From: a virus
Virus record (IMG/VR): IMGVR_UViG_3300008448_012223
Strand: one strand, 5' to 3'
Length of the DNA: 64,000 nucleotides
This document shows, one piece after another, positions 19,978 to 44,900 of this stretch (its first letter is position 1; each line of letters opens with the position of its first letter). The translations under genes were made by a program, and so were the position numbers. Below the pieces are notes generated by a model. The model did no database searches. It saw nothing but the letters and a program-made list of their open reading frames with translations, and was not told the origin of the DNA.

Positions 19978-20016
19978 GACAACATAGCCTCTATTATCTG
20001 ATTGCTGATAACCAAT

Positions 20017-20379: not shown

Positions 20380-20431
20380 TCTTTTGACTCCTAAATAATT
20401 GTTAGCTGATAACTGATAACTAATTACTTTT

Positions 20432-21701: not shown

Positions 21702-21735
21702 GGCTAATAAGTTAATAGGTAATAATTAGAGGTTA

Positions 21736-21925
21736 TGTCCCTCCGTTGGGGAGTGGCATCGGCTACTTTCGCAGCTCGAGCACCATAAGCTCCTCCGCTG
21801 GGGAGTGGCTAGTGCAGCTAGTGTAGCTATCGCGACTAGTGCGACACAAGCCCCTCCGTTGGGGAGTGGCTAATATAGCTATGGTAGCTATCGCGATAAT
21901 AGCTCTTCTGAAAGGGAGTGGCTAA
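21736..21925. repeat. Four imperfect hairpin repeats CCTCCGTTGGGGAGTGGC
   Basis: Copies near 21740, 21792, 21853 and a degenerate one near 21903; period about 50-60 nt. Confidence 0.85.
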
Positions 21926-22142
21926 TGAAACTAACGCAGCTCTTGCTGGATCCTTAGGGAGTACGCATAACAGATAGTTTATTGCCACCGCTAATAGAAT
22001 TCGCCGTCACGAGCATAAGCCGCCGCTAGTAACATTCGCTGTCATGAGCAATACTGGATACTACCTATCATATGGAGGGAAGAGCTCCACTAAAAGAAAA
22101 AGGGGCCAGGTGGCCCCCAGGGGTCATATGACCCCATTGTAA

Positions 22143-25100
22143 TTAGAAATCAGGATGATCTTCAGCTTCAGCGAGCTCTAGTTTGTAGTCGCCGAGGTCG
22201 AGATGTACAGCAGTTGCGATTTCCAACAGCTGCTTGAGCTGGGGGTTCCTGACATGATTAGAGAGTTGGAACTCACTTACCATTTGGAACACACTAACTG
22301 GAACGATCTCATCAGCGCCATAACTAGCTGCGTCATCCTGGGTCATAGGAGCCACAGGATCATAGCCCTGGCCAGTACGACGGAAGGCTCCGTATATGGC
22401 AGACGACATGATAAGGCCCTCGCGAGTGAAGTTGCCCCGTTCGAGAGCACCGTATGTGAGAGTACGGGCACGAGCCTTTATAAGCTGGTAGATTACCGCG
22501 GGCTCCTTAGCTAGTTTAGCAGGCATAAGGCCAGCCATAGCCTGAGCAGGAGGTACACCACTTCCTTGGCGATCCGTATCCGCAAGCTTAGTAGAGTTGG
22601 CAGAGTAGTATAACCTGTCTTGCGCCGACTTATACATAGGTACGCCAGCAGCCCAGGCGCGGGCTGCCTGTACTAAGGTCGCCATGAAGATCTTAGCCTC
22701 AGGGGTATAGCCCCCGAGACCCATGTTTTCATAGACGAAACGCCAAGCTATAACACACGCCTTGAGTGCGTCGGTATCGACGCCGCTAGCGCGGTACATA
22801 CTATCCCATGCCTGGAAGGCAAGTGCGGAACAGATACCATAGCCAGCACCTACGGCCCCTTTGTAGTGCATATGCACCTCAGCAGCGTCGCTGACGTACT
22901 TATTGACAGCGATAGCAGTAGCTACAGCCTTATCCCATTTAGTGAGGGATTTCTTGCCCATCTTATCTTCATAGCTCATGAAGGCGAAGAACGGCAGGTC
23001 ATCTGCTTCGTAGCAGTAGAAGTAGCCGCCCATGCCCATGAGACTAGCATTGATAGTGAGGGCACTCTTAGCGTTAATACCATACTTGTGAGCATTAATG
23101 CCGCCGCACTGATCACCATCAGCATCACCTTCGTTAACGGCGTGCCATAGGAGGGGGTTGACCGTATAGTGTGCGACGAAGGCATCAGTAGTAGAGAACT
23201 TGACGCGGCCACATAGGATGAAACCCATAGGAGTACGTTGTACCCCAATAACCTGGCCCTCTTCAACGCCAAGCATACGCACCATAGGGCAATCGGGGTG
23301 CATGAGAATTACAGGCACGCCATCAGCGCTATGAAGCAGTGGGCTATAGCTCGTCTTGACCTTACCAACGACCACATTGCCGGCGCGGGCTATACTTTTC
23401 AGAATGCCCTGGGATTTAACCATAGTGTTACACCATGTGCGTAAACCACGGCTGACCTTAGCAGTCATAGAGTAGATTTTACTATCCAAACCACTCTGGT
23501 CTTCAATCCCTACATCAGTAACGTAAGCCAGCAGAGTTAGAAGGTCTAACATAATGCCAGTAGCGGAGGCGCCAGAGAAGGTACCGAATGCACTCAAGGC
23601 CTTACCATTGATATGAAGAGAGACTTCATTGCCGTTGTTCTGGGCAACGATATCCACTCCATTGGGGTAGGCGGTAGCAAAACGGCCTAGCAGCTCGCGG
23701 TCACTGCCGGGGGTGCTATCAGAAACGTAGTCGTTAACTACACCGATAATGCCCCGTAGATGGTCACGCCCTTTAGTAGTGCTGATGTTAACACAAGCAG
23801 CACAGTCTTTAGATGTGATCATGCTAACTATGGACATAACGTTATCGTACTTAACTTCCTTCATGAGCGCTTCGCCCCAAGCGCGGTTCTGTAGAGCCAC
23901 AATACCGATCTGCTCCATAGTCATCTTGGAGAATGCTACGGACTCACGAGGAGTAGCTATCTCGATATCGTACGGCAGATAGCCGTATATAACTTCGACG
24001 GTCTCTTCGATACGGACGCTGGTATCGTCTATATCGATTACATTGATATCATCGTTAGCGACTACAGACGAGATGGAATCCCACAGGTCGCGGGCCATAT
24101 CAAAGGAGATGACCTCTTTAACACTGTTGGCTCGAGCCCACTCAGTAAAGGCATTAGTCTTAGCCATGAGATCAATGACTTTACCAGTATCATCGATGGT
24201 GAGAAGCGCACCTTCGGGAGTATAGGTGCAGCCCCCCTTCTCAATGGCAAACATCTCTATGAGTGCGGGCCATCCCTTGGTGGTCTCGTTATTCAGGATG
24301 ATATCCCAGGGTTGAGATAATCCTTTAACGTCATAGGGAAGAGTGGTAAGCTTCTTCCCTAGACCGCGGAGTTTGAGGACCTGGTCGCGCCCTACCATTT
24401 CAGTCTCAAGTCGAATGGTGACGCTATCAGCGCGGCCCTCGACGCCATTACGCGTGACAGTCCCGCCTATTACGCGGATGTCCTGCGCGAACGTCTCGTT
24501 CTTGACAATGCAGTACTTGCCCTGCATAATACTGATGATAGGGTTACCAGGAGCATAAACCTGGCCCTCTGCCTTCGCTATCTTACCTTCTATGACTTCT
24601 ATGAGCTTACTCGTGGGGTCATCTAGATCAGCAGCCATAAGAGCGCGAACTGAGCTAGGAATACGGAGTACGTGAAACTCCTTAGTAATGGTCTTCGGTA
24701 CGGTGTATTCGAACTCGAGGTCGCGACGTATAGCAGCAACACCGCTGCCAAAGCCAAAGCGACTATTGGTGAATGCAGTGCGTAGATAGAGGCCACCACC
24801 ACAACTATAGCCGCCATCACCTAAATCAACGCGAAGTAGGCTATCACGACGATCTATGATCTCAGCACGGGTGTATTTACCCGAGCTAGGCGGACGGTTG
24901 TACACCTTAGTGGGCTTGCTGAAGTCATGGATGGAGTATATCTTACCATCCTTAAGCCCAAGGAACATGGCCTTGGCGCCCTTACCTACAGCGATCCACT
25001 TTGTATTGTACTTATCAGGTGCTGCTATGATGCCGGCCTTGAGCGACAATTCGAGATCGCTGGGAGCAAGATTAGTGTTCTCTACTTGCAGGAAGGGGAA

Positions 25101-27224
25101 GGCCTTATCCCAAGGCTTGAACACGATAGGACGACTCATACCGCGATTAATCTCAAACAGAGATTGGCCCTCTTTAGGCTGAGCGCCGTAGTTGATGTCC
25201 TCGCGCCACAGGTTGGTTATCTCGTTGAGGATAGCACGCGCACCAGTGGCGTTATACGCTACCTTCATACAGAGTGCCACAAGGACTACACGACCACTGT
25301 AGTCCTTGCCTCCGACTTTGACGAGTTCATTAGCGATGCGACGCTGACGACCATCATTGACGGTACCTGTACTAAAGTTGAAAGTAGTGCTGCGGTTATT
25401 ACCCTTGATGACAACACAGGGGCCCTCAACACTAACAATACGGTGCTGCTTGACACACAGACAGCCTACGAGAGCGGCCAGGTCATCACCAGACCACGTA
25501 GCTAACTTAGTGAGGAAGTGCTCACTATACATGTTAACTAAGCATTCGGTCTTAGTAGCATAGGTATGCTTGTCGGCTTCGTAGGGAATAGACTTAGTCA
25601 CACCTAAGTTAATGACCTTAGGATTCATCTTAGAGTCTGTGGTGTAAACAACACGGTGGTCTAGAAGCGCAAGGAACTTCTTAGACATACGGCTGTTAGG
25701 AGACACGACATAGAGAATCGGACCTTCAGGCAGAAGGTCGAAGTTATTAGCCCCAAACAAGCGGGCTAGCTCTTTACGAGCTGTCGTGATGCGCGCCTCC
25801 TGCTTAGGAGACACGACTCCACCGAGAGTACTAGGGTCAGGAATTAACATCTCGATAATGCTTTTCATAGTACTAGGGTCATTGGTGGTATTGGTAGAGG
25901 AGCTATCACTCTCTAACCCCTTAGTAGGGGCTCCTGTGTTAGAGAGCGGGCGGGTAGGAGTTACTGCTGCGGGCGCCGCACCAATAAGACCATCAATTGC
26001 TTGAATGGTTAGCGCAACAGCATCATCGTTGTTGACACTATTGTTAAAGACGAATTCCCAGTCTAATAACGTATTAGTGTCATCATATCCAACGGCTTCA
26101 GCATATTCGCCATAGGTCTTATAACCGAGTACACGATCATCGAGACCTACGACTTCACGACAAATCGCAGGATCTAAACTGTCTACTACATCCATCCATG
26201 TATCATCAGGACCAGGTGCTCCGCTTTCTACAAACGCGGCCATGAGGTAGTGGGTGCATAAGAGGCGGGCCACTAACGCCGGGTCGTACATAAGCAGGGC
26301 TGCTTCGTACTCGTCGTTCTCGTGTTCAGTACCCTCGTAGAACGATTTAGTGGCATGCCATTGAGCGAAGCCAGCCTTCATGGCGGCTTTGGATACAGCG
26401 CCAAACTCTAGGTCTTCAGTAAGACCTAGAGCTTGGCAGTGGTGAACAAGCTCATGAGTCACTGTGTATAAATTGTTGTAGTCGGGTATAGTGATGACAC
26501 CATTACAATAAGATGCTATGCTCCCTTGTACGAAGGTGACACCGCATAGTTTGCCTATGGCTATCATGCGGATAGCCGGTACGTCACTTGGTAATTCTGG
26601 CATTACAACGCTCACACAACGTTTAACGCGTGCTGCTTTATTGGCAGCTTTAGCAGCTTTAGCGGTAGATAAAGCCGTTTTATCGTTTTTAGTTTTGTAC
26701 TTCTTGCCCACACAAGTGCGGCCGTTGCCGCGGTAGTTTACGCGGCCTTGATTAAGAGCAGCGATAATACTACCAGCAGCATTATTAACTACGGTAGCAA
26801 CGGCTTTAGCGCCGGTGCCGGTGCTAGTAGGACGCGCGGGGCGCGAGGGACGCGTAAATAATGCACTGACAGCGCGCAGTATAGGTTTGGCCTTACGTTG
26901 TTGTAAGACAAGTTTGTCTACGACGTTACGGCCGCGTAACACGTGTTTGCGGGCGGCTGAGGCTGCGGCAGCTGCGGCACGACGTAGCGCACGCCGTGCT
27001 GATTTTACAACGCAGGGGCGTTGGCTTTGAGGTAAGGAGCGTATAGGGCGGCCGGCTGACGCTATACGACGAGAGCGACGGCGTACTACGCGATTAGCGC
27101 GACGGCTCGCTATCTGCTGGGCACGGCGCCCAGGGCCTACGCGTCGTGCAGTAGTGCGAGTACCTGCGATAGCGGCGCTGATAGAGGCTACAAAAGATTG
27201 GAAGAAGACAAAGTTGACATTCAT
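22143..27224 (-). CDS. Single-polypeptide two-barrel (DPBB) RNA polymerase candidate with basic N-terminus and zincin motif
   Basis: beta-like VTIRLETEMVGRDQVLKLRGLGKK...WDIILN; beta'-like VIGVQRTP...VNPLLWHAVNEGDADGD (DADGD at 23112-23126); HELVH at 26442-26456. Confidence 0.8.
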   Translation of the reverse strand: MNVNFVFFQSFVASISAAIAGTRTTARRVGPGRRAQQIASRRANRVVRRRSRRIASAGRPIRSLPQSQRPCVVKSARRALRRAAAAAASAARKHVLRGRNVVDKLVLQQRKAKPILRAVSALFTRPSRPARPTSTGTGAKAVATVVNNAAGSIIAALNQGRVNYRGNGRTCVGKKYKTKNDKTALSTAKAAKAANKAARVKRCVSVVMPELPSDVPAIRMIAIGKLCGVTFVQGSIASYCNGVITIPDYNNLYTVTHELVHHCQALGLTEDLEFGAVSKAAMKAGFAQWHATKSFYEGTEHENDEYEAALLMYDPALVARLLCTHYLMAAFVESGAPGPDDTWMDVVDSLDPAICREVVGLDDRVLGYKTYGEYAEAVGYDDTNTLLDWEFVFNNSVNNDDAVALTIQAIDGLIGAAPAAVTPTRPLSNTGAPTKGLESDSSSTNTTNDPSTMKSIIEMLIPDPSTLGGVVSPKQEARITTARKELARLFGANNFDLLPEGPILYVVSPNSRMSKKFLALLDHRVVYTTDSKMNPKVINLGVTKSIPYEADKHTYATKTECLVNMYSEHFLTKLATWSGDDLAALVGCLCVKQHRIVSVEGPCVVIKGNNRSTTFNFSTGTVNDGRQRRIANELVKVGGKDYSGRVVLVALCMKVAYNATGARAILNEITNLWREDINYGAQPKEGQSLFEINRGMSRPIVFKPWDKAFPFLQVENTNLAPSDLELSLKAGIIAAPDKYNTKWIAVGKGAKAMFLGLKDGKIYSIHDFSKPTKVYNRPPSSGKYTRAEIIDRRDSLLRVDLGDGGYSCGGGLYLRTAFTNSRFGFGSGVAAIRRDLEFEYTVPKTITKEFHVLRIPSSVRALMAADLDDPTSKLIEVIEGKIAKAEGQVYAPGNPIISIMQGKYCIVKNETFAQDIRVIGGTVTRNGVEGRADSVTIRLETEMVGRDQVLKLRGLGKKLTTLPYDVKGLSQPWDIILNNETTKGWPALIEMFAIEKGGCTYTPEGALLTIDDTGKVIDLMAKTNAFTEWARANSVKEVISFDMARDLWDSISSVVANDDINVIDIDDTSVRIEETVEVIYGYLPYDIEIATPRESVAFSKMTMEQIGIVALQNRAWGEALMKEVKYDNVMSIVSMITSKDCAACVNISTTKGRDHLRGIIGVVNDYVSDSTPGSDRELLGRFATAYPNGVDIVAQNNGNEVSLHINGKALSAFGTFSGASATGIMLDLLTLLAYVTDVGIEDQSGLDSKIYSMTAKVSRGLRTWCNTMVKSQGILKSIARAGNVVVGKVKTSYSPLLHSADGVPVILMHPDCPMVRMLGVEEGQVIGVQRTPMGFILCGRVKFSTTDAFVAHYTVNPLLWHAVNEGDADGDQCGGINAHKYGINAKSALTINASLMGMGGYFYCYEADDLPFFAFMSYEDKMGKKSLTKWDKAVATAIAVNKYVSDAAEVHMHYKGAVGAGYGICSALAFQAWDSMYRASGVDTDALKACVIAWRFVYENMGLGGYTPEAKIFMATLVQAARAWAAGVPMYKSAQDRLYYSANSTKLADTDRQGSGVPPAQAMAGLMPAKLAKEPAVIYQLIKARARTLTYGALERGNFTREGLIMSSAIYGAFRRTGQGYDPVAPMTQDDAASYGADEIVPVSVFQMVSEFQLSNHVRNPQLKQLLEIATAVHLDLGDYKLELAEAEDHPDF

Positions 27225-27285
27225 GGTATTACTAGTAATGTAGAACCACTAAAAGAAAAAGGGGCCCAAGCAGGGCCCTTTTTAC

Positions 27286-28032
27286 TTAGTCAAGTAGACC
27301 GTTTATATCTGCACGTGTTTTATCAACAGTACCTGCGGCTGCTTCTGTTGTAGCTTCTGCTGTTGCTGCTGCGGCTGCTTCTGTTGCTGCTGCGGCTGCG
27401 GCAGTTGCACGAGCTGTTGCAGCAGCCTCCCGTTTGCGTTTGCGGGCGGCCGCTTTACTATGTAATTGTTCCACAGTTACCACGTTAGATTTTGCCGTCC
27501 CCTCAAACCCGTCCAGTATAGACGGGTCTATCTTCGGGCGCATGACTTCCCGATGAAGTTGTATCTCCGCACCTTCAAGGTGAAAGTACTGGGTTATTGT
27601 GCCCTTGTATTCTGTTTCGCGTCCAACGCAGAGGTCTTCTGCGTTGAAGCTAACTTTTACACTTCCACATGATGAGCTTTCCCAGTCGTCTTCGAAATCT
27701 GTAGATAACTCTACAGACATAATAATATCATCGCTGGCGTCTCCGGTCAGACGCTCTACAAACTTGGACGTAGATAAGCTACGGCCATCGGAGGTAGTGA
27801 GAGGTACCTCCCCGTTCTTATTGGATATCAGCCGGAATTCTAGCCAGTAGCTAGATAGATCCAAGCGGCGTTTGATAGCGCCATTGTGCACGTAAGCAAG
27901 AATGCCAGGTTTAGTGTTGACACTCTTGCTTACGTTAAGAGTAAATACGTAGTTTTTCACAGTAGAGTTGGTGGGGTTAGAAGGGTTAGAGGAGTTAGAG
28001 GAGTTAGAGGCTTGATTGTTGTTGTTTCTCAT
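27286..28032 (-). CDS. Hypothetical protein, beta-rich core with Ala/Thr/Glu-rich tail
   Basis: 248-aa ORF with its own cassette element at 28057. Confidence 0.8.
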   Translation of the reverse strand: MRNNNNQASNSSNSSNPSNPTNSTVKNYVFTLNVSKSVNTKPGILAYVHNGAIKRRLDLSSYWLEFRLISNKNGEVPLTTSDGRSLSTSKFVERLTGDASDDIIMSVELSTDFEDDWESSSCGSVKVSFNAEDLCVGRETEYKGTITQYFHLEGAEIQLHREVMRPKIDPSILDGFEGTAKSNVVTVEQLHSKAAARKRKREAAATARATAAAAAATEAAAAATAEATTEAAAGTVDKTRADINGLLD

Positions 28033-28096
28033 TGTGTATACTTGGGTGTATAAAACTACTAAAAGAAAAGGGGCCCCCGCTCAGGCCCCTTAACTA

Positions 28097-28231
28097 CTAC
28101 TCTTTACCTATCTCGCACGCCGTCACGGGGGAGTCCCCATGACAAATGCCTACGTATACCCCACCAACGATAGCGGCATTAGTGGCAAGAATTACCACAA
28201 CAGAAATTATGTAAGCTAGTGTATATTTCAT
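28097..28231 (-). CDS. Micro membrane protein family A (44 aa)
   Basis: MKYTLAYIISVVVILATNAAIVGGVYVGICHGDSPVTACEIGKE; AGGAG RBS. Confidence 0.75.
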   Translation of the reverse strand: MKYTLAYIISVVVILATNAAIVGGVYVGICHGDSPVTACEIGKE

Positions 28232-28397
28232 AATCTCTCCTAGGATTAATAGATCACTAGAAGAAAAAGGGGCCAATTGTTGGCGCACTTAACGAACTAA
28301 GGCGTTGAGCTTCATTTATCTTTTCTTTAACACGCTATCATTTAGAAACGAGGGCCCGTCTCTGTTTCTTATTCAAGATAGAGGCGGGCCCATAGCA

Positions 28398-28550
28398 TTA
28401 GTCTATTAGAGTAATAATCTCTAAATCACCATCTGGTACAACGTACCAGCGATGACCATCAAGGTCTAGATGACACGCTGGACCATCTACAGACCGACGT
28501 TGAATCGTCAAACGATTCAACACGTGAAGATAAGTGTGATAAGGGCACAT
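28398..28550 (-). CDS. 50-aa protein family B
   Basis: MCPYHTYLHVLNRLTIQRRSVDGPACHLDLDGHRWYVVPDGDLEIITLID; GGAGG RBS; paralog at 29559. Confidence 0.75.
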   Translation of the reverse strand: MCPYHTYLHVLNRLTIQRRSVDGPACHLDLDGHRWYVVPDGDLEIITLID

Positions 28551-28757
28551 AGATTTACCTCCTAGAGTAAATGTTCACTAGAAAGAAAAGGGGCCGCCCA
28601 CCCAACAGCCCCTTAACTACACGACTAGCTACAGACTACGCAAGAGAGCGTGCCCCTCCTCTTCCACTTGATGGGAAAGAGCGCGAGCCTCCATCATTAG
28701 AGCGAGGCAGGTTGTCACTAGAAGAAAAAAGGGGCTGTGGTTAGCAGCCCCCTAATA

Positions 28758-29189
28758 TTATTCAGGTAAATCTACAGAGGGAGCCCAACCCGCCTCTAAC
28801 ATCGACACGTAATCAATGTCGGAATGGTAGTTCCGTTCAACATAGACTCCTTCACCCCGCTGGTAGCGGCAGAGGGGTAGGGATACATACTTGAGAGGTC
28901 GGATGAATGCATAGTTACCCTCATCCCAGGTAGCCACCTCCCAGTAAGTAGCCCACTCAGGAATTACTTCCGCTGTGGGTATCTCTACTTTCCATACGGT
29001 CGTGAAGGCACGGCCAGGATTGAGCTTGACCAGCTGCTCTTCACAGACGATTATCTCTCCTCCATTGTAGGAGACCTCTATACCTACCTTCTTGGCCAGA
29101 GAAGATAGGATACCCGCTAGACGAGGCGGGCAAGGTAGCTTCATGTTATAGGAGTTGGGATTGAAGTTCCACGTGTCACGACACTCCAC
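28758..29189 (-). CDS. Hypothetical protein
   Basis: 143-aa ORF; start uncertain. Confidence 0.6.
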   Translation of the reverse strand: MECRDTWNFNPNSYNMKLPCPPRLAGILSSLAKKVGIEVSYNGGEIIVCEEQLVKLNPGRAFTTVWKVEIPTAEVIPEWATYWEVATWDEGNYAFIRPLKYVSLPLCRYQRGEGVYVERNYHSDIDYVSMLEAGWAPSVDLPE

Positions 29190-29258
29190 CTTGATGGTGT
29201 CGGGACCTACCGCCAGAATGCGGTAGTTGAAGTTACCGATGGCCCCGGCTAAAGAAGA

Positions 29259-29495
29259 CTACCAGTTGTCGTGCCCTCCGGAAGCAGCGAGAGAGGTGAT
29301 TTCTTCTTCGTTAAGACGAGCCTTGAAGTTTCGTATTACCGCATCGCGTGTCTTAGCGATGTCGGCTTCAGATAGAGTCGGGGGCTGAGGACCGCCCATG
29401 AAATAATACGAGATGAATGCCCACGTCGTTGGGTGGACGTAGACGCCCGCCGCCTGTAGTGCGGCGTAGATTGACGCCGCTAGGATTTTGTACAT
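29259..29495 (-). CDS. Hypothetical protein
   Basis: 78 aa, AGGAG RBS, cassette element at 29519. Confidence 0.7.
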   Translation of the reverse strand: MYKILAASIYAALQAAGVYVHPTTWAFISYYFMGGPQPPTLSEADIAKTRDAVIRNFKARLNEEEITSLAASGGHDNW

Positions 29496-29558
29496 ATGCT
29501 CTCCTGGGACTAATGAATCACCAGAAGGAAAAAGGGGAGCATATAGCTCCCCATAGTG

Positions 29559-29711
29559 TTAGTCTATTAGAGTGATGACCTCGAAGTCACCATCTGGTAG
29601 AACGTACCAGCGGTGACCATCCAGGTCTATGTGACACGCAGGACCATCAACTGTACGTAACTGGATAGTGGTATGGTTGATAATGTGCAGATAGGTTTGA
29701 TATGGGCACAT
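29559..29711 (-). CDS. 50-aa protein family B (paralog)
   Basis: MCPYQTYLHIINHTTIQLRTVDGPACHIDLDGHRWYVLPDGDFEVITLID; AAGGAG RBS. Confidence 0.75.
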   Translation of the reverse strand: MCPYQTYLHIINHTTIQLRTVDGPACHIDLDGHRWYVLPDGDFEVITLID

Positions 29712-29786
29712 GATAATACTCCTTCTAGAGTAAAGGTCACTAAAAGGAAAAAGGGGAGCTATATGCTCCCCTTACTAATTAACTAC

Positions 29787-30083
29787 CTACACCCCACGGC
29801 AACGTCCAGCCTTCTTAGCTGCTTGGCGTAACGCCTTGCCGTGATAACGACGCCAACGTTTAGACTGGTTATAGCTTTGGTGGAAGGAGCCACCTCCCCA
29901 GAAGCCCGCATCCCAACGAGCATTGTCAGGCTCACCAGGACCGTAGAAGACGTGACGGCTACTACGTACCACCGTCCCACCACGATGCTGGCTACCCCAG
30001 CTCTGACGAGCCACACTAGACTCGTAATTGTAAGCAGCAGTAGCACGAGCAGCTACGGTGACATTAGTGGTGCAGTTTAACAT
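29787..30083 (-). CDS. Basic hypothetical protein (98 aa)
   Basis: Start MLNCTT downstream of the cassette element at 30108. Confidence 0.6.
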   Translation of the reverse strand: MLNCTTNVTVAARATAAYNYESSVARQSWGSQHRGGTVVRSSRHVFYGPGEPDNARWDAGFWGGGSFHQSYNQSKRWRRYHGKALRQAAKKAGRCRGV

Positions 30084-30147
30084 GAGCTGTTCTCTTGGAC
30101 TAGTGTTCACAGGAAGGAAAAAAGGTGCATTGCTGTCCCTCTGTTAT

Positions 30148-30987
30148 CTATTTCTTACGAAGCACGGGCTTGGCCTTAGCCCGATACCCCAGTCGCTCGA
30201 TCAATTGCATGAGGTACTTGAGCTGACATTTGGGGTTGCCATCTACCGCTAGGTAATATTCACCCCAACGATAGACGGCAGATGCCACGGCTCCTGATTT
30301 GAGAAGTGAACGGAGAGCCTCATTCTCTCCAATCTTCTTAAGGTCAAAAGACTTCTTGTTAAGGAAGTCAATGACGGGTTGGTAGCCCGCCATTTGTTTA
30401 GCGTGCTCAGGAGACGCAAGATACGCTTCCTCCGCCTGTGCCTTATCCTCTTCCTTTTGCTTTTTGTCTGTTTTCTCTTCTACCCAGCGTAGATAGTCGG
30501 GTATAACCTCACGCTCGATAATATCGCGGTAGTAAGCGGCGGCCTCCTCCTCACGCCACTCATAGTGCTCCGTAGTAGTAGGGCATTCTACTACTAGGTG
30601 CGTCATGTCTACCTCTACCTCTCCGTTAGAGAGGTAGATGCACCGGGCTTCTAGACGAGCCGCTTCATCTAGAGGAGAAGTGACAAGCCCATTTTGGTCC
30701 CGCCAACGACGTACGCGGACGGGAATGCGTAACAATGCAGGAGTCCACTTCTGACGAGTGTAAGAGCAATCTACCGACGGAATGTCCTCGTAGTACCCCT
30801 TAGAGGGATGAGTCCCTCCGTCTATTATTTCCACTACCTCTTCCAAGGTAGCGATGGCACGTTCTTGGCAGGCTGATGCTGTGTAGTATTCTACACGGTA
30901 TAAGTAATCAGCTCCTACTTTAATGCCTATAGACTCGTCTAATTTGACGAAGCGGAATGTATAGCCAGCCAGCTTGATAGATTTCAT
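30148..30987 (-). CDS. Hypothetical protein
   Basis: 279 aa, AGGAGG RBS. Confidence 0.75.
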   Translation of the reverse strand: MKSIKLAGYTFRFVKLDESIGIKVGADYLYRVEYYTASACQERAIATLEEVVEIIDGGTHPSKGYYEDIPSVDCSYTRQKWTPALLRIPVRVRRWRDQNGLVTSPLDEAARLEARCIYLSNGEVEVDMTHLVVECPTTTEHYEWREEEAAAYYRDIIEREVIPDYLRWVEEKTDKKQKEEDKAQAEEAYLASPEHAKQMAGYQPVIDFLNKKSFDLKKIGENEALRSLLKSGAVASAVYRWGEYYLAVDGNPKCQLKYLMQLIERLGYRAKAKPVLRKK

Positions 30988-31166
30988 AGTCTCCTCCTTG
31001 GAGATAAGTTCATGAAAGAAAAAAGGGGCCTCGGGCCCCTCCTTACCTACTCTACTTATTCAGCTCCGCTCACTCACGGCGGAGCTTCTCTATTTCCTGC
31101 CTTACCTGTTCCATCTCGTGGCTTTACGCCGCAAGATCAATAACAGGAGCGGGGCGGCGTTGTTGA

Positions 31167-33137
31167 TCAGTTATGACTGATCACATAGACGCGCTTAGCA
31201 TCCGTGTAATCTTGATAGTCTTTTGGTAGAAGAGACCGTCCTACCTTAAGTGGCTCGCCCCATGCGTCGAAGGCACCATAGAGATCCCCGTTTGCTCCGA
31301 GGAGCACCCGATTGACGAAGGCATTATAGAGATACCCGTCTGCTCCGAGGCGCACCCCTTTGATGAACCACATCTTAAGAATCTTCTGGGCTATCTCTTC
31401 GTAGAGAAGAATAACCGTGGGCTCTCGTTGCCCTAGCCCAAGTGCTTCGCAATTATCGAAGCACAGATCCCCGGACTGGTTAATCCAGGTCCAGGACTGC
31501 GCTATTATTCCTGAATTATCCTCGAATATGAGGAATCCGGAGTTGCGCTTTTCTTGCCCATACCAAGCGCAGGTTTCCCCAGCCCCGTCTGGGTGCTGGC
31601 AACAGTTAGTATATTCACCGAGGAAGAGCCCTCGCGTATCCTCCCGGGGGAGGAAGTAGGCGCGGATTCCATCCCGGGTAGCATCAATCCCCGAAAGGAA
31701 ATCTGGTATTTGTAGAGAACGTATAAAACGCCCCTCGTAGTAGTTGTAATCCCGCGCAGATACACCCCAATTGGCGCACTCCAGGGCAAACCCCTGGTGG
31801 TTAATACTTGCGTACTTACGTGTCTTACATACCGTCACCAGTAGACGGAATGGCAGAGAGCGCTCCTCCACGCTCAGTTTGTGCCAGACTCGGCATATTA
31901 AGCCGAGTTCAGAAAATGAGGTGGAGCGCTGGCGTAGGCGCTCCCCCTGTGCGAATAGGAACTCGCTCAATCCCTGCCCGCCGAGGGGTAGCCAGTAAGT
32001 GGCGTCATGCTCGCTGTAGCCGAGCTTGGCCATCTTAGTGAGCCACTCCTCAGAGCGGCTTCCGAAAGTTGTTACTAATGGGACGAGGTACTCTGGAGGA
32101 TTCTCCCGTAGTAGCAATAGCTTATTAGCTACTGCTACCTTCAGGGTGGGTATATACCCCTCCTCCCCAAATATAGTTTCTTCGTTCTCTTTAAAGGCTT
32201 TGAGCAAAGGGCGCTCAATAGCCCAACTAAGTTCCCCGTACAATTTACGGAGGGCTAGGCGCTTGTGGCCATTAAGCCATAAGTACTGGGCTATGGCCGT
32301 GCGCCCCGAGTGGCACACCTCATTAAAGCGCTGCCAGAAGGCAGCGATGCGTTCGGTACGGGAACGACGGCGCGCCCGATCCCACTGTCCCCCCTCCTCT
32401 TTCCAGAGGACCCCAGCAAGGGCTCGGAGGTCTGGGCGGGACTTGTACATAGTTCCCAGCCGTACGGCTAAAGATTTGGGAATCTCTGTGTTATATTTCC
32501 ATGTCCGCGCAGCTGGGATTAGATCCCATACGTTACCAATGCGGGTGGGAACAGACATATGAACCAGTACCCGCTTAACCCAAATGGGTAAGCGGTTATA
32601 GTTTGGGGTAAGCGCTACCCTTAACACTTTACTGTGATCCGGTTGGTAACCGGAGTTCCATACCCGCCCAGGGGTGCGGACATCCTCCCATAGAGGGAGG
32701 ATGCGCTTGACCTCCCACCAGTACTTAACACCTAGATCTACTAAGTGTTCAGCCAGCTGAGGAGTTCTTAGCTCCTCGAACCAAACCCCTTCTTTCTCAT
32801 AAGAGAGTCCGATACCCTCGTTTAAACGAAGGTATCGGATAAGGCGCAGGCGCACCATGTGCGCCTCCTTTGCTTCCTCCAAGCTTACTTCTCGGGTGAT
32901 GACCCGAGAGATAATCCAGCGCTGGGAGCTGGATAGACTATTCCACTCCTCCCACTCACTCCAGGGAGTATGTGGATTGAGTTCCAGCCACTGCCGGAAC
33001 TCAAGTAGAACGTTATAAAGAGAGAAATAGTAGGGAGCGGGGTCAGCTCCTAACTCAGCTTGTGCCTCCCACTCAAGGGAGTAGGCAAGCTGAAGGCGAG
33101 CCGCCTTGGTTTTGGCGGATTTGATAAACTTAGACAT
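31167..33137 (-). CDS. PcfJ-related GNAT-like domain protein
   Basis: C-terminal LG.YTNCCQH..GAGE.CA..G....GFL.F....IIAQSW.W.....L.FDN.E pattern. Confidence 0.6.
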   Translation of the reverse strand: MSKFIKSAKTKAARLQLAYSLEWEAQAELGADPAPYYFSLYNVLLEFRQWLELNPHTPWSEWEEWNSLSSSQRWIISRVITREVSLEEAKEAHMVRLRLIRYLRLNEGIGLSYEKEGVWFEELRTPQLAEHLVDLGVKYWWEVKRILPLWEDVRTPGRVWNSGYQPDHSKVLRVALTPNYNRLPIWVKRVLVHMSVPTRIGNVWDLIPAARTWKYNTEIPKSLAVRLGTMYKSRPDLRALAGVLWKEEGGQWDRARRRSRTERIAAFWQRFNEVCHSGRTAIAQYLWLNGHKRLALRKLYGELSWAIERPLLKAFKENEETIFGEEGYIPTLKVAVANKLLLLRENPPEYLVPLVTTFGSRSEEWLTKMAKLGYSEHDATYWLPLGGQGLSEFLFAQGERLRQRSTSFSELGLICRVWHKLSVEERSLPFRLLVTVCKTRKYASINHQGFALECANWGVSARDYNYYEGRFIRSLQIPDFLSGIDATRDGIRAYFLPREDTRGLFLGEYTNCCQHPDGAGETCAWYGQEKRNSGFLIFEDNSGIIAQSWTWINQSGDLCFDNCEALGLGQREPTVILLYEEIAQKILKMWFIKGVRLGADGYLYNAFVNRVLLGANGDLYGAFDAWGEPLKVGRSLLPKDYQDYTDAKRVYVISHN

Positions 33138-33203
33138 AGAATTGTCCTCCTGGGACTAAAATTCACCAGAAGAAAAAAGGACCTTATCAAGACCCCTTAA
33201 TTA

Positions 33204-33347
33204 TTATTTATTTACCTCCTCACAGAGTGAAGATTTCAGGTCTCCGTAACAGGCCTCTACGGCTATTCCGCCAACAATGGCGGAGCAGCTAAATGTTAAT
33301 ATTATGATAGAGACAATATAGACGATATCGTACTTACCTAATTTCAT
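33204..33347 (-). CDS. Micro membrane protein family A (47 aa)
   Basis: MKLGKYDIVYIVSIIILTFSCSAIVGGIAVEACYGDLKSSLCEEVNK; AGGAGG RBS. Confidence 0.75.
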   Translation of the reverse strand: MKLGKYDIVYIVSIIILTFSCSAIVGGIAVEACYGDLKSSLCEEVNK

Positions 33348-33415
33348 AATTCCTCCTAGGATTAATAGATCACTAGAAGAAAAAAGGGGATAAAGCATAT
33401 CCCCTTTTAATTAAA

Positions 33416-33931
33416 TTACTTTAACCAGCTTAAGTCTAGCTGGTAATAGAGAAGTTTATCACTCTTCTCTATTGTCTCGAAGAGACCATAGAGGCACTCC
33501 TCGAGATGATCTCGGTCCACCCGGCTAGTCAGACCGAGCCCCTCCCAGGTAGGCTGAGGGGGTTTAATCTCTACCAAGCAGGTCTTGGTGATGCCAACAG
33601 CCAAACGAAGACTGTCGGTACGGCATAACTGGCCCAGCTTCTTATCTACTGCCTCGGCGTCGGTAGTAAGCTGAAGAGCCCATAGCTCGCCAGTATACTG
33701 GCGGACTATTACGTCCACCTTGTATACCCGGTCTAGTACTCCCCAATCATCAGTGGGGACGAGACGACGAAGGACACCGCCTCGGGAGTTGAGCTCTAGA
33801 TGTTCACCCGCGAGATCACGCGCCTGGTTATACAGATAACCCGTATTCCATATCTCTCGGGGCTTCGGACACTCGAAGCCTAACTCTTCAACTAGGCGTA
33901 ACACTACTTTCTCCATCTGTAAACCATTCAT
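33416..33931 (-). CDS. Possible PD-(D/E)XK-like nuclease
   Basis: D...LDRVYKVDVIV...ALQLT spacing. Confidence 0.45.
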   Translation of the reverse strand: MNGLQMEKVVLRLVEELGFECPKPREIWNTGYLYNQARDLAGEHLELNSRGGVLRRLVPTDDWGVLDRVYKVDVIVRQYTGELWALQLTTDAEAVDKKLGQLCRTDSLRLAVGITKTCLVEIKPPQPTWEGLGLTSRVDRDHLEECLYGLFETIEKSDKLLYYQLDLSWLK

Positions 33932-33996
33932 GATGTACTCCTAGGATTATAGATCACTAGAAGGAAAAAGGGGCCCCCGCCCAGGCCCCTTAACTA

Positions 33997-34131
33997 CTAC
34001 TCTTTGTCTACCTCACATAGTGAAGACGGTAGAGGTCCATAACAGGCCTCATGGTATACTCCACCAACGATAGCGCCGCATACGCCAAGGATGACGGCAA
34101 CAGCCGCTATGTAAGATAATGTGTATTTCAT
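33997..34131 (-). CDS. Micro membrane protein family A (44 aa)
   Basis: MKYTLSYIAAVAVILGVCGAIVGGVYHEACYGPLPSSLCEVDKE. Confidence 0.75.
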   Translation of the reverse strand: MKYTLSYIAAVAVILGVCGAIVGGVYHEACYGPLPSSLCEVDKE

Positions 34132-34200
34132 AATCCCTCCTAGGGTTATAAGATCACTAAAAGAAAAGGGGCCTTACCAAGGCCCCTTATTTATTATTTA

Positions 34201-34344
34201 TTATTTATTCACCTCCTCACAGAGTGGAGACTTCGGGTCTCCGTAACAGGATTCCACGGCTACTCCACCAACAATGGCGGAGCAAGTAATTGTTAGGAAT
34301 AGCATACATACAATGTATGCTATATCATACTTATCTAGCTTCAT
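34201..34344 (-). CDS. Micro membrane protein family A (47 aa)
   Basis: MKLDKYDIAYIVCMLFLTITCSAIVGGVAVESCYGDPKSPLCEEVNK. Confidence 0.75.
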   Translation of the reverse strand: MKLDKYDIAYIVCMLFLTITCSAIVGGVAVESCYGDPKSPLCEEVNK

Positions 34345-34404
34345 ATATCCTCCTAGGAGTTAACTTCACTAGAAGAAAAAGGGGCGCAGTGCCCCTTCTA
34401 TCAA

Positions 34405-34725
34405 CTACTTAACAAGGATGTAGTTGATGTTGAACTGGAGTATATCCTCCTCCGTCCATCGTTCTCCTTCTGCCAGCCGCCGGGGGCTGACAAATAAACA
34501 TACAATATACTCGGCCCCCGAGGGCACCTGTACCCGATTCACGGGTATGTTTACTCCGAGACGGGCGGAGAGGAGCTCCGCCGTAGAGAGGTGTCCGAGA
34601 GCACTTGTCCACTCAGTAGTGGAGAGGAGAGCGCGGGTCTCTTCCTCTGAAATACAAGTACTAGTGATAGCCCCACCCGGCGTGGTAGGGTAAAGGGAGT
34701 TTGGGAAAGAATTAAGAACGTACAT
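34405..34725 (-). CDS. acrIII-1: AcrIII-1 (DUF1874) viral ring nuclease, anti-type III CRISPR
   Basis: Y.LNSF N-terminus, SALGH45.ST..LLS, NR64V, R83LAE86G; spacing matches SIRV1 gp29 H47/R66/R85/E88 as recalled. Confidence 0.85.
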   Translation of the reverse strand: MYVLNSFPNSLYPTTPGGAITSTCISEEETRALLSTTEWTSALGHLSTAELLSARLGVNIPVNRVQVPSGAEYIVCLFVSPRRLAEGERWTEEDILQFNINYILVK

Positions 34726-34794
34726 AATCTTCCTCTAAGGTTTAAAGTTCACTAGAAGAAAAAGGGAGCATTACACTCCCTAAATTACCCCAAG

Positions 34795-35139
34795 TTACTT
34801 GATATAACCTGGGTTCCAGTTAATTACTGGTTCGACGACGAACTCACCGCCGAATATTACCATCTTAGACCAGACTATGCGTCTGGTTGGTAATGCAACC
34901 TCATCGTAGTAGTTTGGGTCGTCTTCGACGTACCACCAGGGGCGGTGGGCTTCGACGTTCCCGTCGAAAGCAAGGATGAAGACTGACCCGTATCCTCCAC
35001 GGGCGAAGTCCTTGGCCACTGCCAAACTGCGGCTGGCATAAAGAACTTCGCTACAACGATCCCAATCTAAGTGATCGTTGGTATGACCACGATAGGCGTA
35101 GTCATACTCCCTGGGAAGATGTTTATATATACTCATCAT
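34795..35139 (-). CDS. ADP-ribosyltransferase-like protein (R-S-E type)
   Basis: YRG...YASRSLAVAKDFA..G.VF...DEV. Confidence 0.5.
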   Translation of the reverse strand: MMSIYKHLPREYDYAYRGHTNDHLDWDRCSEVLYASRSLAVAKDFARGGYGSVFILAFDGNVEAHRPWWYVEDDPNYYDEVALPTRRIVWSKMVIFGGEFVVEPVINWNPGYIK

Positions 35140-35214
35140 AGGTGTTCTCCTGTGGACTAGTGTTCACAGAAAGAAAAAAGGGGCATTGCTGCCCCTTAAT
35201 TATTATTTATCTAC

Positions 35215-35358
35215 CTATTTATCAGTCTTACACATTGACAGTGCGGGGTAGTCGTAGCAGACAACCCGGTAGAAGGCGCCAAGAATTAGACCATTCACGC
35301 CGAGCACGAGTGCAGCAGCCACAATTAAACCGAGTATATCGTCTTTGATAGATTTCAT
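35215..35358 (-). CDS. Micro membrane protein family A (47 aa, divergent)
   Basis: MKSIKDDILGLIVAAALVLGVNGLILGAFYRVVCYDYPALSMCKTDK. Confidence 0.7.
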   Translation of the reverse strand: MKSIKDDILGLIVAAALVLGVNGLILGAFYRVVCYDYPALSMCKTDK

Positions 35359-35422
35359 AATGTCTCCTCCTGGAGATTATAGATCACCAGAAGAAAAAGG
35401 GGCCCTGCCCAGACCCCTTTTC

Positions 35423-35560
35423 TTATCTCATGTTTATATACTCCTGACGCACAGTCGGTATATTCTGGCCGTCTCCACGTTCTGGTAGCTGGCTGGCCAA
35501 TACCGTCATGAAGATAATAGGAATTACTACGACGCTGATAATTAGAGCTAATGATTTCAT
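35423..35560 (-). CDS. 45-aa membrane micro-protein
   Basis: MKSLALIISVVVIPIIFMTVLASQLPERGDGQNIPTVRQEYINMR; AGGAG RBS; first cassette of the array. Confidence 0.65.
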   Translation of the reverse strand: MKSLALIISVVVIPIIFMTVLASQLPERGDGQNIPTVRQEYINMR

Positions 35561-35646
35561 ATACCCTCCTAGGGTTATAGACCACTAGAAGGAAAAAGGG
35601 GCCAATTGAAGGGCCGGGTGGGGGAGGGGATATACCCTATAATACG

Positions 35647-41636: not shown

Positions 41637-41905
41637 CACTCTCAGACTATAGACTCACATACGAGATAACATCACTACCGACTATAATATTCGCTGGGAT
41701 GACCGCTGCGGATGAGCCATTTCACTTCACTCGCTTTGAGGTGCCCCCCATTAATGGTCCCATCGAGTGCCGCTTTTTACTATTCGATAAGTCAGGTAAT
41801 TTGATAGAGTTATCTAATCAATATGTGCACAGTACTGCGCTAGTGGCTACCTGCAATATAGTGCCACTGCGTATGATAGAAAAGCTAGTTAAACCAGATC
41901 CATAG
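41630..41905 (+). CDS. Hypothetical protein
   Basis: 91-aa ORF converging on the giant gene. Confidence 0.55.
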   Translation: MVTLSDYRLTYEITSLPTIIFAGMTAADEPFHFTRFEVPPINGPIECRFLLFDKSGNLIELSNQYVHSTALVATCNIVPLRMIEKLVKPDP

Positions 41906-44900
41906 AGTAACTCTCGCTCTCATTTCGATAGGCCATACTATTAGGACGGTCTACTGTTAGGTCGCTCATATAGAGGGCGTCATAGGTGTCGTATTCATCA
42001 CCATTGAATATAGTTTGTACGAAGAACTCAACAGGGGAGCCCGCGTCATCTACGACCTCGGTTTCAGCATTATCCTCTCGTTCCATGCGAGCTCTATTCA
42101 TACTCTCTTGAGTAGCGCGTATACCGGCGCTAACAGCATCTAGAGCTACGGGGGCTACACTACGCTGCATACTGACCTCTAACCCACGATGGAGTAACTT
42201 ATTTACGAAGCCTGCTGATACGAGACTCAATGCCCCCGTGATGACGTTGCTAGCTACATTACGCAGGCCCGCGAATGGGTCAGAGTCTATTGTGGGAGCC
42301 TTACCGAGTGTCTTCTCTACGAATGGGTTGATGATATAGCGGCCTGCCAGTTGAGCTGTTGCGCCAAAGGCTATCTCCTGTGCTAGTAGCATACCGACAC
42401 CAATTGTATAGTCCTCGTGTAGTTGACCTGCTAGGCGTCCCTTGAATCCCATACTCATCAGAGTACCTGCGGCGAAACGTCCCAACTGGTTACCTGCTGG
42501 GGCGCTTACGTAGGCCATAGCGCCTAGCATATTACCCATAGTCTGCTGCATTGCCTCGGGGCGGGCTCCGCCACTACTAATCATATCTCCTGCCAGTGCC
42601 ATTAGGGGGAATAGAAGTACATCCATTATATTACCGGCAGTATTGTTAAGAATAGGTAGATCATCTGCTACGCGCAAGAGGGGGCGGTCTGGTCGCGGGC
42701 GAGGATCCAGTGGGTCCACATCAGGAGGTGAGCCGGCCAGTAGATAATCGCGCCGACGAGCTGCTAACTCCTTAGCCCTATCTGGGGCGACACCCATATC
42801 CTGTAGTAGTTTTATATAGCGCGTATCGACGTCACGGCTCTCATAGTCTCGTAGCTCCTCTACTAGTCTATCGGCTGTATCTACCTGCTGACCTAGTGCT
42901 GTAGCGCGAACATAAGTAACCAATCGACTAGTGGCTATCTCATCTGTGAGAACTGTCTTCTGAATAAACTCTATTATCTCCTTATCAGCTGGGCTAGGGG
43001 TGCCGCTATTGAGTAACACACTAAAGATATCTGCTATTTCATAGCGCTTACCATCAGCGTGAGTGAAGGTATCCATAAGAGACTCGAGGGCCCGTGCTAC
43101 CTGCTCAGGCTCGTTTATCTTCCCGGCCGATACAGCCTGTAACAGTGATCTAACTAGCGGACTAGCTCCTAAGCCAGTAGGGTCACCAGCGGCAGTAATC
43201 AGATCCTGACCGAGTACATCCTCTAGTTGTCCTCCGTATAGTGTGGAGCGGGTACTATCATTAATAGCGAAGCGCAGTAGTTTACTGCCATCAGTATTAG
43301 CCCAGAGTGATGCACTCTCCCTACTACGTAGGAAGTTCATAGCTAATATACGCTTAGTATTCGTACCCATATCCTGGAAGCGCTTATCTCCTATTACATC
43401 ACGAGTGAAGTTCTGGAACTCTTCTACTTCTATCTCCATCTCGGTGAGGCCATTAGTGATGCCACCTGCTATGAGGGCATCTATCTGAGCGGCCCGCGCG
43501 GGCTCGCTATTTATGTAGGTCTCCACACTCTCTGCTAGGCCTCTACCAGAGCTAATGGGGTTACCTGCCTTATCGGTTGGCATAGCCCGCTCAAAGGCGA
43601 ATACAGCCGCCATACCTACTAGGTCCTGTCGTAGTTGATAGCTGGCTATGAGGGCGCGGCTATGAGTACCTATCTCATCTCCTCGCAGTACACTCAATCG
43701 ACGAGATAAATCTAACTGCTCAGCCTCTCCAATGGAGAGTTTAGTCAGTAGATCATTAATCTTAGAGTCCTGAGCATCATTAGTAGCTGATGCCAGTAAT
43801 TCTTTATGAGCTTCTATATACGCATCTAACTTAAATAGAGGAGTTATAGACGGTAGTAGTTTACTCATATCATCCACTACACGCTGGCGCTCCACATCAT
43901 CGACGGCATCTACAAAGCGCTTATGGTACTGCGATAAGTTCTCTAGGAACTCAGCGCCACCCATCTTAGGCTTAATAGCATCCCGCAGCATTTGTTGTAT
44001 CTCTTGCAGGAATGTGCCTACCTCGCCTACCTCTGTCCTACTCTGGCGGGCCAGTCTCTGTATATCCGCTATCTTACTATCGGCCTCTAGGTTAGCATCA
44101 CTCGCGCTCATGCCACTTGCTATACCCTGATCGATTAGTATACGACGTATGTCATCCTGTAGGGCCGAGCTATTCTCTAGTGCGTGTGATACAGCCATGA
44201 TGGGGGAGCGCTCGTATAGCATACCCACGGTAGTATTATATGTCTTACCGAGGATTACACTACCTGCCTGACCCAGTACCTTCTGCATCATATCAAATTG
44301 ACCGCCGCTCATGACACTACCATCAGCGCGCTTCATGTACTTACTGAGATTATCGCGAGCATTAACAGCAGTTAATTTATGCAGGAAGTCATATGCCTTC
44401 TCTTCCTGATCGTTACCTGTAGCGCTCAGGATATCATGTAGACTAGCCCGCACGAATGGCCCTATATCAGGATTATTAACGAGATCGGTTAGTATGTTCT
44501 GGTCTGTAGAGGTAGATAATCTATTAACTATATCAACTGCACTATCGGTTCTACTCTGCTGTATTAACTCTAATAGGGATTCGTGAGCTGGGTGTATACG
44601 CGCGTATACATCCTCCATCATACCGAAGAGACCGCGGGCCTGTTCTACTAGTACCAGGGCATGTTCTATACCTCTCTGTTCCAGCATACCCTTATCTAAT
44701 TTCATATAGCCCGCTACCCAGCTATACACTGAGTCGGTATACTCATTCCAACTAGCATTAGTGGTTACCTGCTGTATAGTATCCAGTAGAGCACTGGCAC
44801 GCGTCTCTAAATCGCTAGCTTGCTTCTCTAGAATGGTACGCTTAGCGGGATCAGCAGCCTGAGATGCCATCTCCCGCCGCTCCTTAGCGCGTTCCAGCAT

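Follow-up and report, generated by a model that had tools for sequence, protein, structure and literature searches.

A predicted single-chain two-barrel RNA polymerase at the end of a repeated-element cassette array in a Microcystis myovirus

The window analyzed here is a stretch of 64,000 nucleotides of viral DNA (IMG/VR record IMGVR_UViG_3300008448_012223), and its source virus is a Fukuivirus, a Microcystis myovirus of the Ma-LMM01/MaMV-DC type. Two features of the window are described: an open reading frame (ORF) of 1693 residues, orthologous to Ma-LMM01 gp064, and a 19-copy element heading the small genes of an array that closes with this ORF. By predicted fold and invariant residues the gp064-type protein is, with high confidence, a two-barrel RNA polymerase (RNAP). 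Its predicted activity is most likely that of a DNA-dependent enzyme working as a single polypeptide. The gene and its parts are as follows.

22143..27224, minus strand: putative RNAP gene (P0001; ortholog of Ma-LMM01 gp064, 86.5% identical), 1693 residues
26610..27224, minus strand: basic arm, residues 1-205, rich in Arg, Lys and Ala, absent from most homologs
26025..26609, minus strand: HELVH domain, residues 206-400, with HELVH at 257 (zincin-like HExxH motif), accessory
23928..25499, minus strand: beta/Rpb2-like half, residues 576-1099, about 400 residues aligned at a root mean square deviation (rmsd) of 4.4-4.8, holding GFGSG 824-828, K951-x-R953-x4-K958, E980/K983 and E1088
23091..23378, minus strand: predicted beta-prime-type double-psi beta barrel (DPBB), residues 1283-1378, with R1330-x-P1332 and the catalytic loop
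23112..23126, minus strand: D1367-A-D1369-G-D1371, predicted Mg-binding triad, invariant in 110-117 aligned relatives

A first-pass annotation, made from the letters of the window and a list of ORFs, had placed the 1693-residue ORF at these coordinates with the strand unstated. The ORF was confirmed and runs on the minus strand (27224→22143); the plus frame of the interval is riddled with stops. Four public assemblies carry it intact and free of internal variants, and it matches one hypothetical protein in every isolate at 86-88% full-length identity. Comparison with six orthologs shows purifying selection on the gene, most strongly on the two barrel regions (ratio of non-synonymous to synonymous rates 0.07-0.24). 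The motifs quoted by that annotation were all found in the expected order: LRTAF at 814, GFGSG at 824, VTIRLE at 935, KLRGLGKK at 951 and DIILN at 974, followed in the second half by VQRTP at 1328, VNP at 1355 and NEGDADGD at 1364. Orthologs of gp064 are still annotated as hypothetical, which answers the question it had raised about their status.

Residues 495-1693 were modeled with AlphaFold2 from a 13-sequence alignment, giving a mean predicted local distance difference test (pLDDT) score of 82.1 and a predicted template modeling score of 0.79. When the model was searched against 48,161 PDB representative chains, ranks 1 to 15 were all chains of two-barrel polymerases. The top match was P74-26 gp62 (Z 12.0, 423 residues aligned, rmsd 5.0), extending from residue 681 to 1666 and across both barrels. 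It was followed by QDE-1 (Z 11.8), RDR2 (Z 11.6) and P23-45 gp96 (Z 10.5), then by beta-type chains and one beta-prime chain, with isolated DPBBs below the top 15. The QDE-1 alignment also covers both barrels (509 residues, rmsd 6.3). Since one alignment each to gp62 and to QDE-1 spans both barrels, these appear to be arranged in the model as in known enzymes. A second structure comparison gave the same picture, residues 576-1099 superposing on nearly all of Rpb2/beta. Residues 1283-1378 (789-884 of the model) superposed on free DPBBs at rmsd 2.0-2.3, including a designed DPBB at 2.0 over 85 residues. In a viral structure library the matches were viral RNAPs, segments of crAss-like RNAPs and two uncharacterised proteins of Acinetobacter phage ME3. 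Plain Foldseek against the PDB gave weak matches (E ~1e-3), with RNAP beta chains at probability 0.9-1.0; rows for aminopeptidase N (probability ≤0.33, rmsd 34) were rejected as noise. The comparison of an AlphaFold model with known structures that the first-pass annotation had proposed thus returned two-barrel polymerases, and its reading of a single chain with the beta-like barrel before the beta-prime-like one is supported by predicted fold and structure searches.

The two ME3 proteins (BFVD A0A172Q0S6 and A0A172Q021) matched the model with E ~1e-5 and probability 1.0. The group of this Acinetobacter jumbo phage has been described as having no RNAP of its own (PMC7824862).

Eight residues are invariant among two-barrel polymerases (PMC2919709), and seven of them were matched in the gp064-type protein; equivalences to Rpb1, Rpb2 and QDE-1 were assigned by motif, not by coordinates. 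The two basic residues of the beta-type barrel are present (compare Rpb2 K979/K987 and QDE-1 R738/K743), as is the R-x-P ahead of the aspartate loop (compare Rpb1 R446/P448; defined in PMC2919709). In the family alignment K951 was found in 122 of 122 sequences, K958 in 123 of 123, R953 in 107 of 122, and R1330 and P1332 each in 125 of 125. Across the 110-125 sequences of the cluster-representative alignment, K951, K958, R1330, P1332, D1367, D1369 and D1371 are unvarying. The eighth residue (Rpb2 D837, QDE-1 D709) falls by motif on S827, a position with Ser in 103, Glu in 7, Asp in 5 and Asn in 5 of 121 relatives; E1088 (127/127) or E980 (109/123) might supply the substitute acid. Further basic residues are conserved, namely the switch-2-like K1288 (122/126) and the funnel-like K983 (123/123), and residues of these kinds have been tied to DNA templates (PMC2919709; their mapping here is by motif). 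In the predicted active site the two barrels would face each other, with D1367, D1369 and D1371 holding Mg while K951, K958 and R1330 would bind the nucleoside triphosphate and the RNA end.

The family comprises 159 clusters at 50% identity in a cluster-representative search. Searches of Pfam and NCBIfam gave no match, and the one PHROG matched (30979) is itself unannotated. A sequence search of the PDB with phmmer and a profile returned no match, and the same two methods detected no homology to P23-45 gp64 or P74-26 gp62. By analogy the gp064-type protein may work like P23-45 gp64; by sequence it stands outside the gp64 family and all catalogued RNAP families. The basic arm is 26% Arg plus Lys, with two acidic residues in positions 20-205, and five distant members of the family also have an N-terminal HExxH. 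Basic arm, HExxH domain and linker together make up the first 455 residues, which are missing from most homologs and from both copies in a close relative, a distribution that marks them as accessory. A feature search of the ESM Atlas with residues 200-420 gave unnamed clusters and one lead, LPD23 (18% of members), only.

Family members of 2900-3400 residues were also observed (G003:C1 64812-74555; L002 12183-22415; P0115, P0116 and P0126). Several of them carry an N-terminal HExxH, and the L002 gene corresponds to WOL31509 of Microcoleus phage My-WqHQDG, annotated as hypothetical. In two further loci, L045 4518-13717 and L021 687-11471, a pair made of a gp065-like gene and the polymerase gene is duplicated in tandem. 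The duplicated polymerase paralogs are 84% (L045) and 61% (L021) identical and the aspartate triad is kept in both.

A single-chain two-barrel RNAP is an enzyme kind that is already known, and the best structural match is the non-virion RNAP of Thermus phages, P23-45 gp64/P74-26 gp62 (PDB 8f72 and 8f5m; PMC10770324), with Z 12.0-12.5 over 423-428 residues and both barrels. The likeness extends to the single chain, to a position among small cassette genes with fused terminator and AT-rich elements, and to a giant second DxDGD protein encoded in the same genome. Identity in the superposition is 10%, however, and the core of the window protein is about 1240 residues against 593, with a beta-like N-terminal half; the basic arm and HExxH domain are additions, and the virus is a myovirus with its genome circularly permuted. 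QDE-1 and RDR2 are likewise single chains with both barrels (Z 11.6-12.3 over 455-509 residues) and share the K-x-R-x4-K spacing. They differ in retaining D709, in belonging to eukaryotic RNA silencing and in having no beta-barrel insertion (PMC7824862), which the gp064-type protein appears to have. Among multisubunit RNAPs (beta/Rpb2 and beta-prime/Rpb1, including those of phiKZ and AR9), residues 576-1099 resemble Rpb2/beta with Z up to 12.5, and residues 1276-1584 resemble beta-prime from the barrel to the trigger-loop region with Z 7.7; the gp064-type protein differs in being one polypeptide with no alpha, omega or sigma, in having DADGD in place of DFDGD and in the Ser at the likely D837 position. 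The crAss-like phi14:2 gp66 and SPbeta YonO are also phage single-chain two-barrel RNAPs, gp66 being a weaker match (591 residues aligned, Z 6.4) with no profile match.

Around the gene lie the copies of the element, the array that they head and, further upstream, a second large gene.

27225..27278, minus strand: element copy before the putative RNAP gene, consisting of a terminator-like hairpin (27278-27262), a T-rich core (27260-27247) and a 22-nt spacer
22088..22118, minus strand: element copy directly after the putative RNAP gene, a likely terminator for it
27225..35620, minus strand: cassette array of small same-strand genes, each preceded by the element, with the putative RNAP gene as last coding cassette
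34405..34725, minus strand: cassette gene matching PF08960, STIV_B116-like (Pfam E 2e-12, above cut-off)
41889..52577, minus strand: giant gene (P0002; Ma-LMM01 gp080), 3562 residues, candidate virion RNAP

Eighteen copies of the element match one pattern, where 0.12 were expected by chance and none of 100 shuffles reached 18. With a 19th, degenerate copy near 31021 this agrees with the count of 19 given by the first-pass annotation. Every copy is on the minus strand, the full set spanning 22088 to 35598. In the 162 kb of Ma-LMM01 there are 6 copies, all at 43.7-51.3 kb and around gp063-gp067 only. Each copy opens with a GC hairpin and a T tract, the shape of an intrinsic terminator, and continues into a core ending in GTG; in the 17 gene-leading copies the ATG follows 21-26 nt after the element. 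The copy before the RNAP gene ends at 27247, leaving a 22-nt spacer to the ATG, consistent with the 23 nt reported earlier. The terminator-shaped hairpin and the copy directly 3′ of the gene had been missed. The latter could possibly double as a promoter directed at the early cluster gp063-gp054 and the 42-bp repeats described below.

A second hairpin can form in most copies by pairing of an arm that contains the Shine-Dalgarno (SD) sequence with the 7 nt that follow the T tract. At one position of this stem A-T, G-C and T-A pairs occur in 20, 12 and 2 of 39 distinct copies, counted copy by copy. RNAalifold gave no consensus for this hairpin in the ungapped alignment, in which its 3′ arms are out of register. 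Conservation of the element would therefore be partly at the RNA level, and a terminator plus an SD-masking hairpin appears to explain much of it. The copies with no SD or pairing partner (before the RNAP gene, before gp065 and after the RNAP gene) nevertheless keep the core, as do copies in which the first hairpin is weak (-5.8 to -6.4 kcal/mol), and a TG after the arm of the second hairpin is unpaired yet nearly fixed. Sigma-70 sites are not enriched in the array (21 found, 22 expected) and none was found at the elements. The PeSL cassettes of T4-type phages differ in this respect: PeSLs are repeated intergenic stem-loop units which allow gene shuffling in the early region, and they carry a sigma-70-type promoter for the host RNAP. 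With a terminator lying 25 nt ahead of each start codon and the SD buried, the array would be silent unless RNA synthesis began within the element itself. This argues for a promoter in the element but does not demonstrate one.

Several further observations were made in the array. No clear SD and no SD-masking hairpin was found in the spacer of the RNAP-gene copy (27225-27246, minus strand); the RNAP gene and the gene preceding it have no recognisable SD, unlike other cassettes, and their orthologs have AC-rich leaders, which suggests low or SD-independent translation. A cassette of about 140 nt between two elements (28590-28730, minus strand) has no SD and no ORF of 60 residues, and possibly encodes a small RNA or peptide. 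PF08960 corresponds to the AcrIII-1 ring-nuclease family, which makes the gene at 34405..34725 a probable anti-CRISPR, of a kind needed right after entry. No PF08960 gene is annotated in the shorter array of Ma-LMM01.

The closest known parallel to the element is found in P23-45, where pre-early terminators end 6 nt ahead of AT-rich promoter start sites (TTS1/TSS2 and TTS8/TSS11), with tails that merge into the AT-rich 11-mer immediately upstream of the start site (PMC10770324). One AT-rich start of this kind lies ahead of gene 64, which encodes the non-virion RNAP; in the authors' assignment the giant virion RNAP reads the AT-rich class, and the non-virion enzyme a distinct, GC-rich one (PMC10770324). 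The same architecture is present in the window, the T tract of the terminator hairpin running into an 11-nt motif, with the SD-masking hairpin as an addition. Cores of the window elements agree with the P23-45 11-mer at 7-10 of 11 positions (10 of 11 in the RNAP-gene copy), a match that is suggestive only, since the terminator tail supplies the T run for free. The register of the P23-45 motif puts the predicted start at the G of GTG. In four distant phages (G001, G003, G004 and G005; 25-35% protein identity) a giant DxDGD gene lies upstream on the same strand and the gp064-family gene stands behind a GC hairpin and a T-rich tract. In G001, G003 and G005 that gene is at or near the end of a hairpin-led gene array, and in G001 some 15 hairpin-led cassettes end exactly at it. 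All phages examined carry both genes, so that co-occurrence cannot assign the element to either product. In G005/L019 the motif before the polymerase gene differs from that of the array, which argues against general self-recognition. In L019 2389-14452 small genes follow a hairpin and TTATTTTGT, whereas TAAATAAGT precedes five genes, the polymerase gene among them; the locus is a candidate for holding two promoter classes.

The giant gp080-type gene is head-to-head with the portal and capsid module. Its candidate two-barrel motifs (D1356, R1497/K1506, K1549, R2477 and D2537-x-D-G-D2541) are conserved in 8 homologs of 23-48% identity. A model of residues 1700-2880 from 8 sequences, a segment that excluded the beta barrel at 1350-1550, reached pLDDT 49, and an ESM Atlas feature search for the region gave scores under 0.8 and nothing useful. 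Profiles of the gp080-type and gp064-type families meet only at the NP..DxDGD loop (probability 1.7%), which leaves paralogy of the two families unsupported. The protein resembles the P23-45 virion RNAP gp96, itself a fold match to the gp064-type model (Z 10.5), in its giant size and in having, as the candidate reader of the element, a promoter that overlaps a terminator. It differs in its PLD-like N-terminal domains and is not known to act as a tape measure. Tandem PLD-like HxK motifs were observed at H287 and H566, N-terminal to the two-barrel motifs; homologs in distant phages have 3500-4700 residues.

In published RNA-seq of Ma-LMM01, gp064-067 belong to the middle class and gp054-063 to the early class (PMC5780444). 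The gp064-067 transcripts are among the weakest of the phage, and the early genes gp054-063 lie just downstream of the last element. The ratio of 1 h to 3 h signal was recomputed from the published table for a self-chosen subset of genes, assuming a log2(FPKM+1) scale (FPKM, fragments per kilobase per million). For gp064-067 it was about 1.5% (95% range 0.9-2.5), from some 16 fragments in one library; for early gp054-063 it was 5.5%, for neighbours and middle genes 0.07-0.3%, and gp080 had no signal at 1 h. The gp064-067 ratio fits an earlier onset and decides nothing. Between 3 and 6 h the gp064 mRNA rose about 1.5-fold while capsid and sheath mRNAs rose about 50-140-fold, and this missing late surge speaks against a virion role for gp064. 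Public RNA runs consist of assembled contigs from one study; their coverage is even, they show no transcript ends, they may represent DNA and are possibly the window's own source, and no conclusion on expression was taken from them.

Our preferred reading, held tentatively and at somewhat short of an even chance, is that the giant gp080-type protein reads the cassettes and that the gp064-type protein is the non-virion, second-wave polymerase of a P23-45-like cascade; its steps were inferred by analogy and comparative genomics. The 3562-residue gp080-type polymerase, encoded beside head genes, would enter with the DNA and start at the T-rich core, probably at the G of GTG, just past the terminator of the upstream cassette. 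RNA begun there would lack the 5′ arm of the hairpin that masks the SD, and translation would then be limited to locally started RNAs while read-through RNA stayed silent; in RNA cut at the predicted start the computed accessibility of the SD rises from 0.22 to 0.49, as it would on any 5′ truncation of a hairpin. The cassettes would yield anti-defence proteins (e.g. AcrIII-1-like) and, last in the array, the gp064-type polymerase, which would then transcribe early and some middle genes from as yet hypothetical promoters. The first-pass annotation had the gp064-type gene heading its own promoter class, with positive feedback or priming by a second RNAP. The promoter class of its own was not borne out, the closest parallel motif being assigned to the P23-45 virion RNAP, nor was the feedback; priming by the second RNAP is favored, since the AT-rich class belongs to the virion enzyme in P23-45. 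Its proposal of a non-virion role is plausible.

Several points weigh against the cascade. The beta-aspartate position appears to be Ser in 103 of 121 relatives, and tandem gene duplicates are odd for a core enzyme. Polymerase identity of gp080 is a candidate assignment from motifs and one weak Foldseek row (rank 12, E 5e-3). Because the Ma-LMM01 genome is circularly permuted (PMC4103541), entry of the array ahead of other DNA, as in P23-45, is not assured. The element-bearing genes fall in the middle class with some of the weakest transcripts, whereas the true early genes have the 5.5% ratio. The free T run and the generic effect of truncation, both noted above, belong on the same side.

The alternatives differ mainly in what the element does. 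It may be no phage promoter at all, in which case the same enzyme would use promoters elsewhere and the element would be a terminator and SD-masking hairpin tuning a read-through operon, or a PeSL-like recombination joint. Terminator-shaped hairpins in most copies, a second stem with compensatory changes that accounts for much of the core conservation, low expression and middle class of gp064-067, plain T runs after the hairpins of L021 and tandem cassette duplications all agree with this. We consider it unlikely, if not markedly so: with internal starts denied, terminator and buried SD would silence an array that has no sigma-70 site there, and the core is kept where it has no pairing partner and where the first hairpin is weak. 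The gp064-type enzyme could instead read the element itself and, once primed by the host or virion RNAP, transcribe its own gene along with the array in a positive feedback. The confinement of the element to the array around the RNAP gene (as with the 6 copies of Ma-LMM01), the arrays that end at the polymerase gene in distant phages, the persistence of gp064-067 transcripts at 3-6 h and the occupation of the pre-early region by the non-virion RNAP in P23-45 are in keeping with such self-reading. A feedback loop predicts high mRNA, however, and minimal levels were seen; in P23-45 the AT-rich class serves the virion enzyme and the non-virion enzyme uses the GC-rich class; and the polymerase gene of L019 has a motif other than that of its array. 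Self-reading is accordingly judged unlikely, and the giant second polymerase is the more likely reader.

Two other proposals concern the protein. Packaging and injection of the gp064-type protein as a polyvalent virion protein, its basic arm binding head DNA, would suit the protamine-like arm with the HExxH domain, the 2900-3400-residue fusions in the family and the metallopeptidase domain also present in P23-45 gp96. The arm is absent from most homologs and from both copies in the close relative, the mRNA rise is about 1.5-fold against 50-140-fold for capsid and sheath, and the gene is apart from the structural module, all of which makes packaging improbable. Least probable is that the two-barrel fold does another job, as an RNA-dependent polymerase, a primase-like enzyme, an untemplated nucleotidyltransferase or a weakly active decoy. 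QDE-1 and RDR2 do score as high as gp62, the K-x-R-x4-K spacing is that of QDE-1, the candidate beta-aspartate is Ser and paralogs are duplicated. Against such a job stand a double-stranded DNA phage as the source, an N-terminal half superposing on almost the whole of Rpb2/beta, beta-barrel insertion included, the conservation of K1288 (122/126) and K983 (123/123) at positions linked by motif to DNA templates (PMC2919709), and the invariant R1330, equivalent to Rpb1 R446, which speaks for ribonucleotides.

Two other repeats were observed in the window. Repeats of about 42 bp with a TAGCCACTCCCC core lie at 21730-21930 (minus strand), in the interval separating the gp063 ortholog from the last element; they stand at the head of the published early cluster, are annotated as repeats in Ma-LMM01 and are a candidate promoter array or origin. 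Inspection by eye of the sequence ahead of the early genes gave no convincing second motif. At 1-4170 and 19980-20480 (minus strand) a second repeated leader, with AGTTATCAG-type runs before TAGGAGTAAAA-ATG, precedes a paralogous family of genes of 185-257 residues and is unrelated to the 19-copy element.

Ma-LMM01 serves as the model lytic phage for Microcystis, a cyanobacterium that forms toxic blooms. The first-pass annotation noted that this phage group is described as relying on host RNAP, and so it has been published: Fukuiviruses are stated to have no RNAP and to depend on the host enzyme (PMC5780444, PMC9927357, PMC4103541). The viral two-barrel RNAP survey of PMC10770324 includes no Microcystis phage, and in the openly accessible literature (subscription papers outside scope) no paper was found that calls gp064 or gp080 a polymerase, nor was a virion proteome found. 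In the Ma-LMM01 transcriptome study three expression classes were seen although the promoters are uniformly sigma-70-like and the host transcriptome does not change, and their origin was left unexplained (PMC5780444). A phage RNAP would answer how these classes arise. If true, the two-polymerase reading would overturn the published view that the main Microcystis myovirus works with host RNAP only, and would account for timed gene classes with no altered host transcription. The gp064 family has escaped Pfam and NCBIfam, the PHROG annotation and the published survey, and would offer a new branch for the study of single-chain and multisubunit polymerase evolution, with an active site that is possibly altered. 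It is conceivable, though doubtful as a whole, that Fukuivirus and a wide unannotated phage clade share a two-step transcription in which a PLD-fused virion enzyme of 3,500-4,700 residues is followed by a second-wave enzyme lacking the 'universal' beta-aspartate, and in which a 55-nt unit would gate each cassette, ending the RNA that arrives from upstream and launching a fresh one, the only RNA from which translation is allowed. The findings also suggest that the dual-polymerase scheme of P23-45 is widespread rather than a Thermus oddity.

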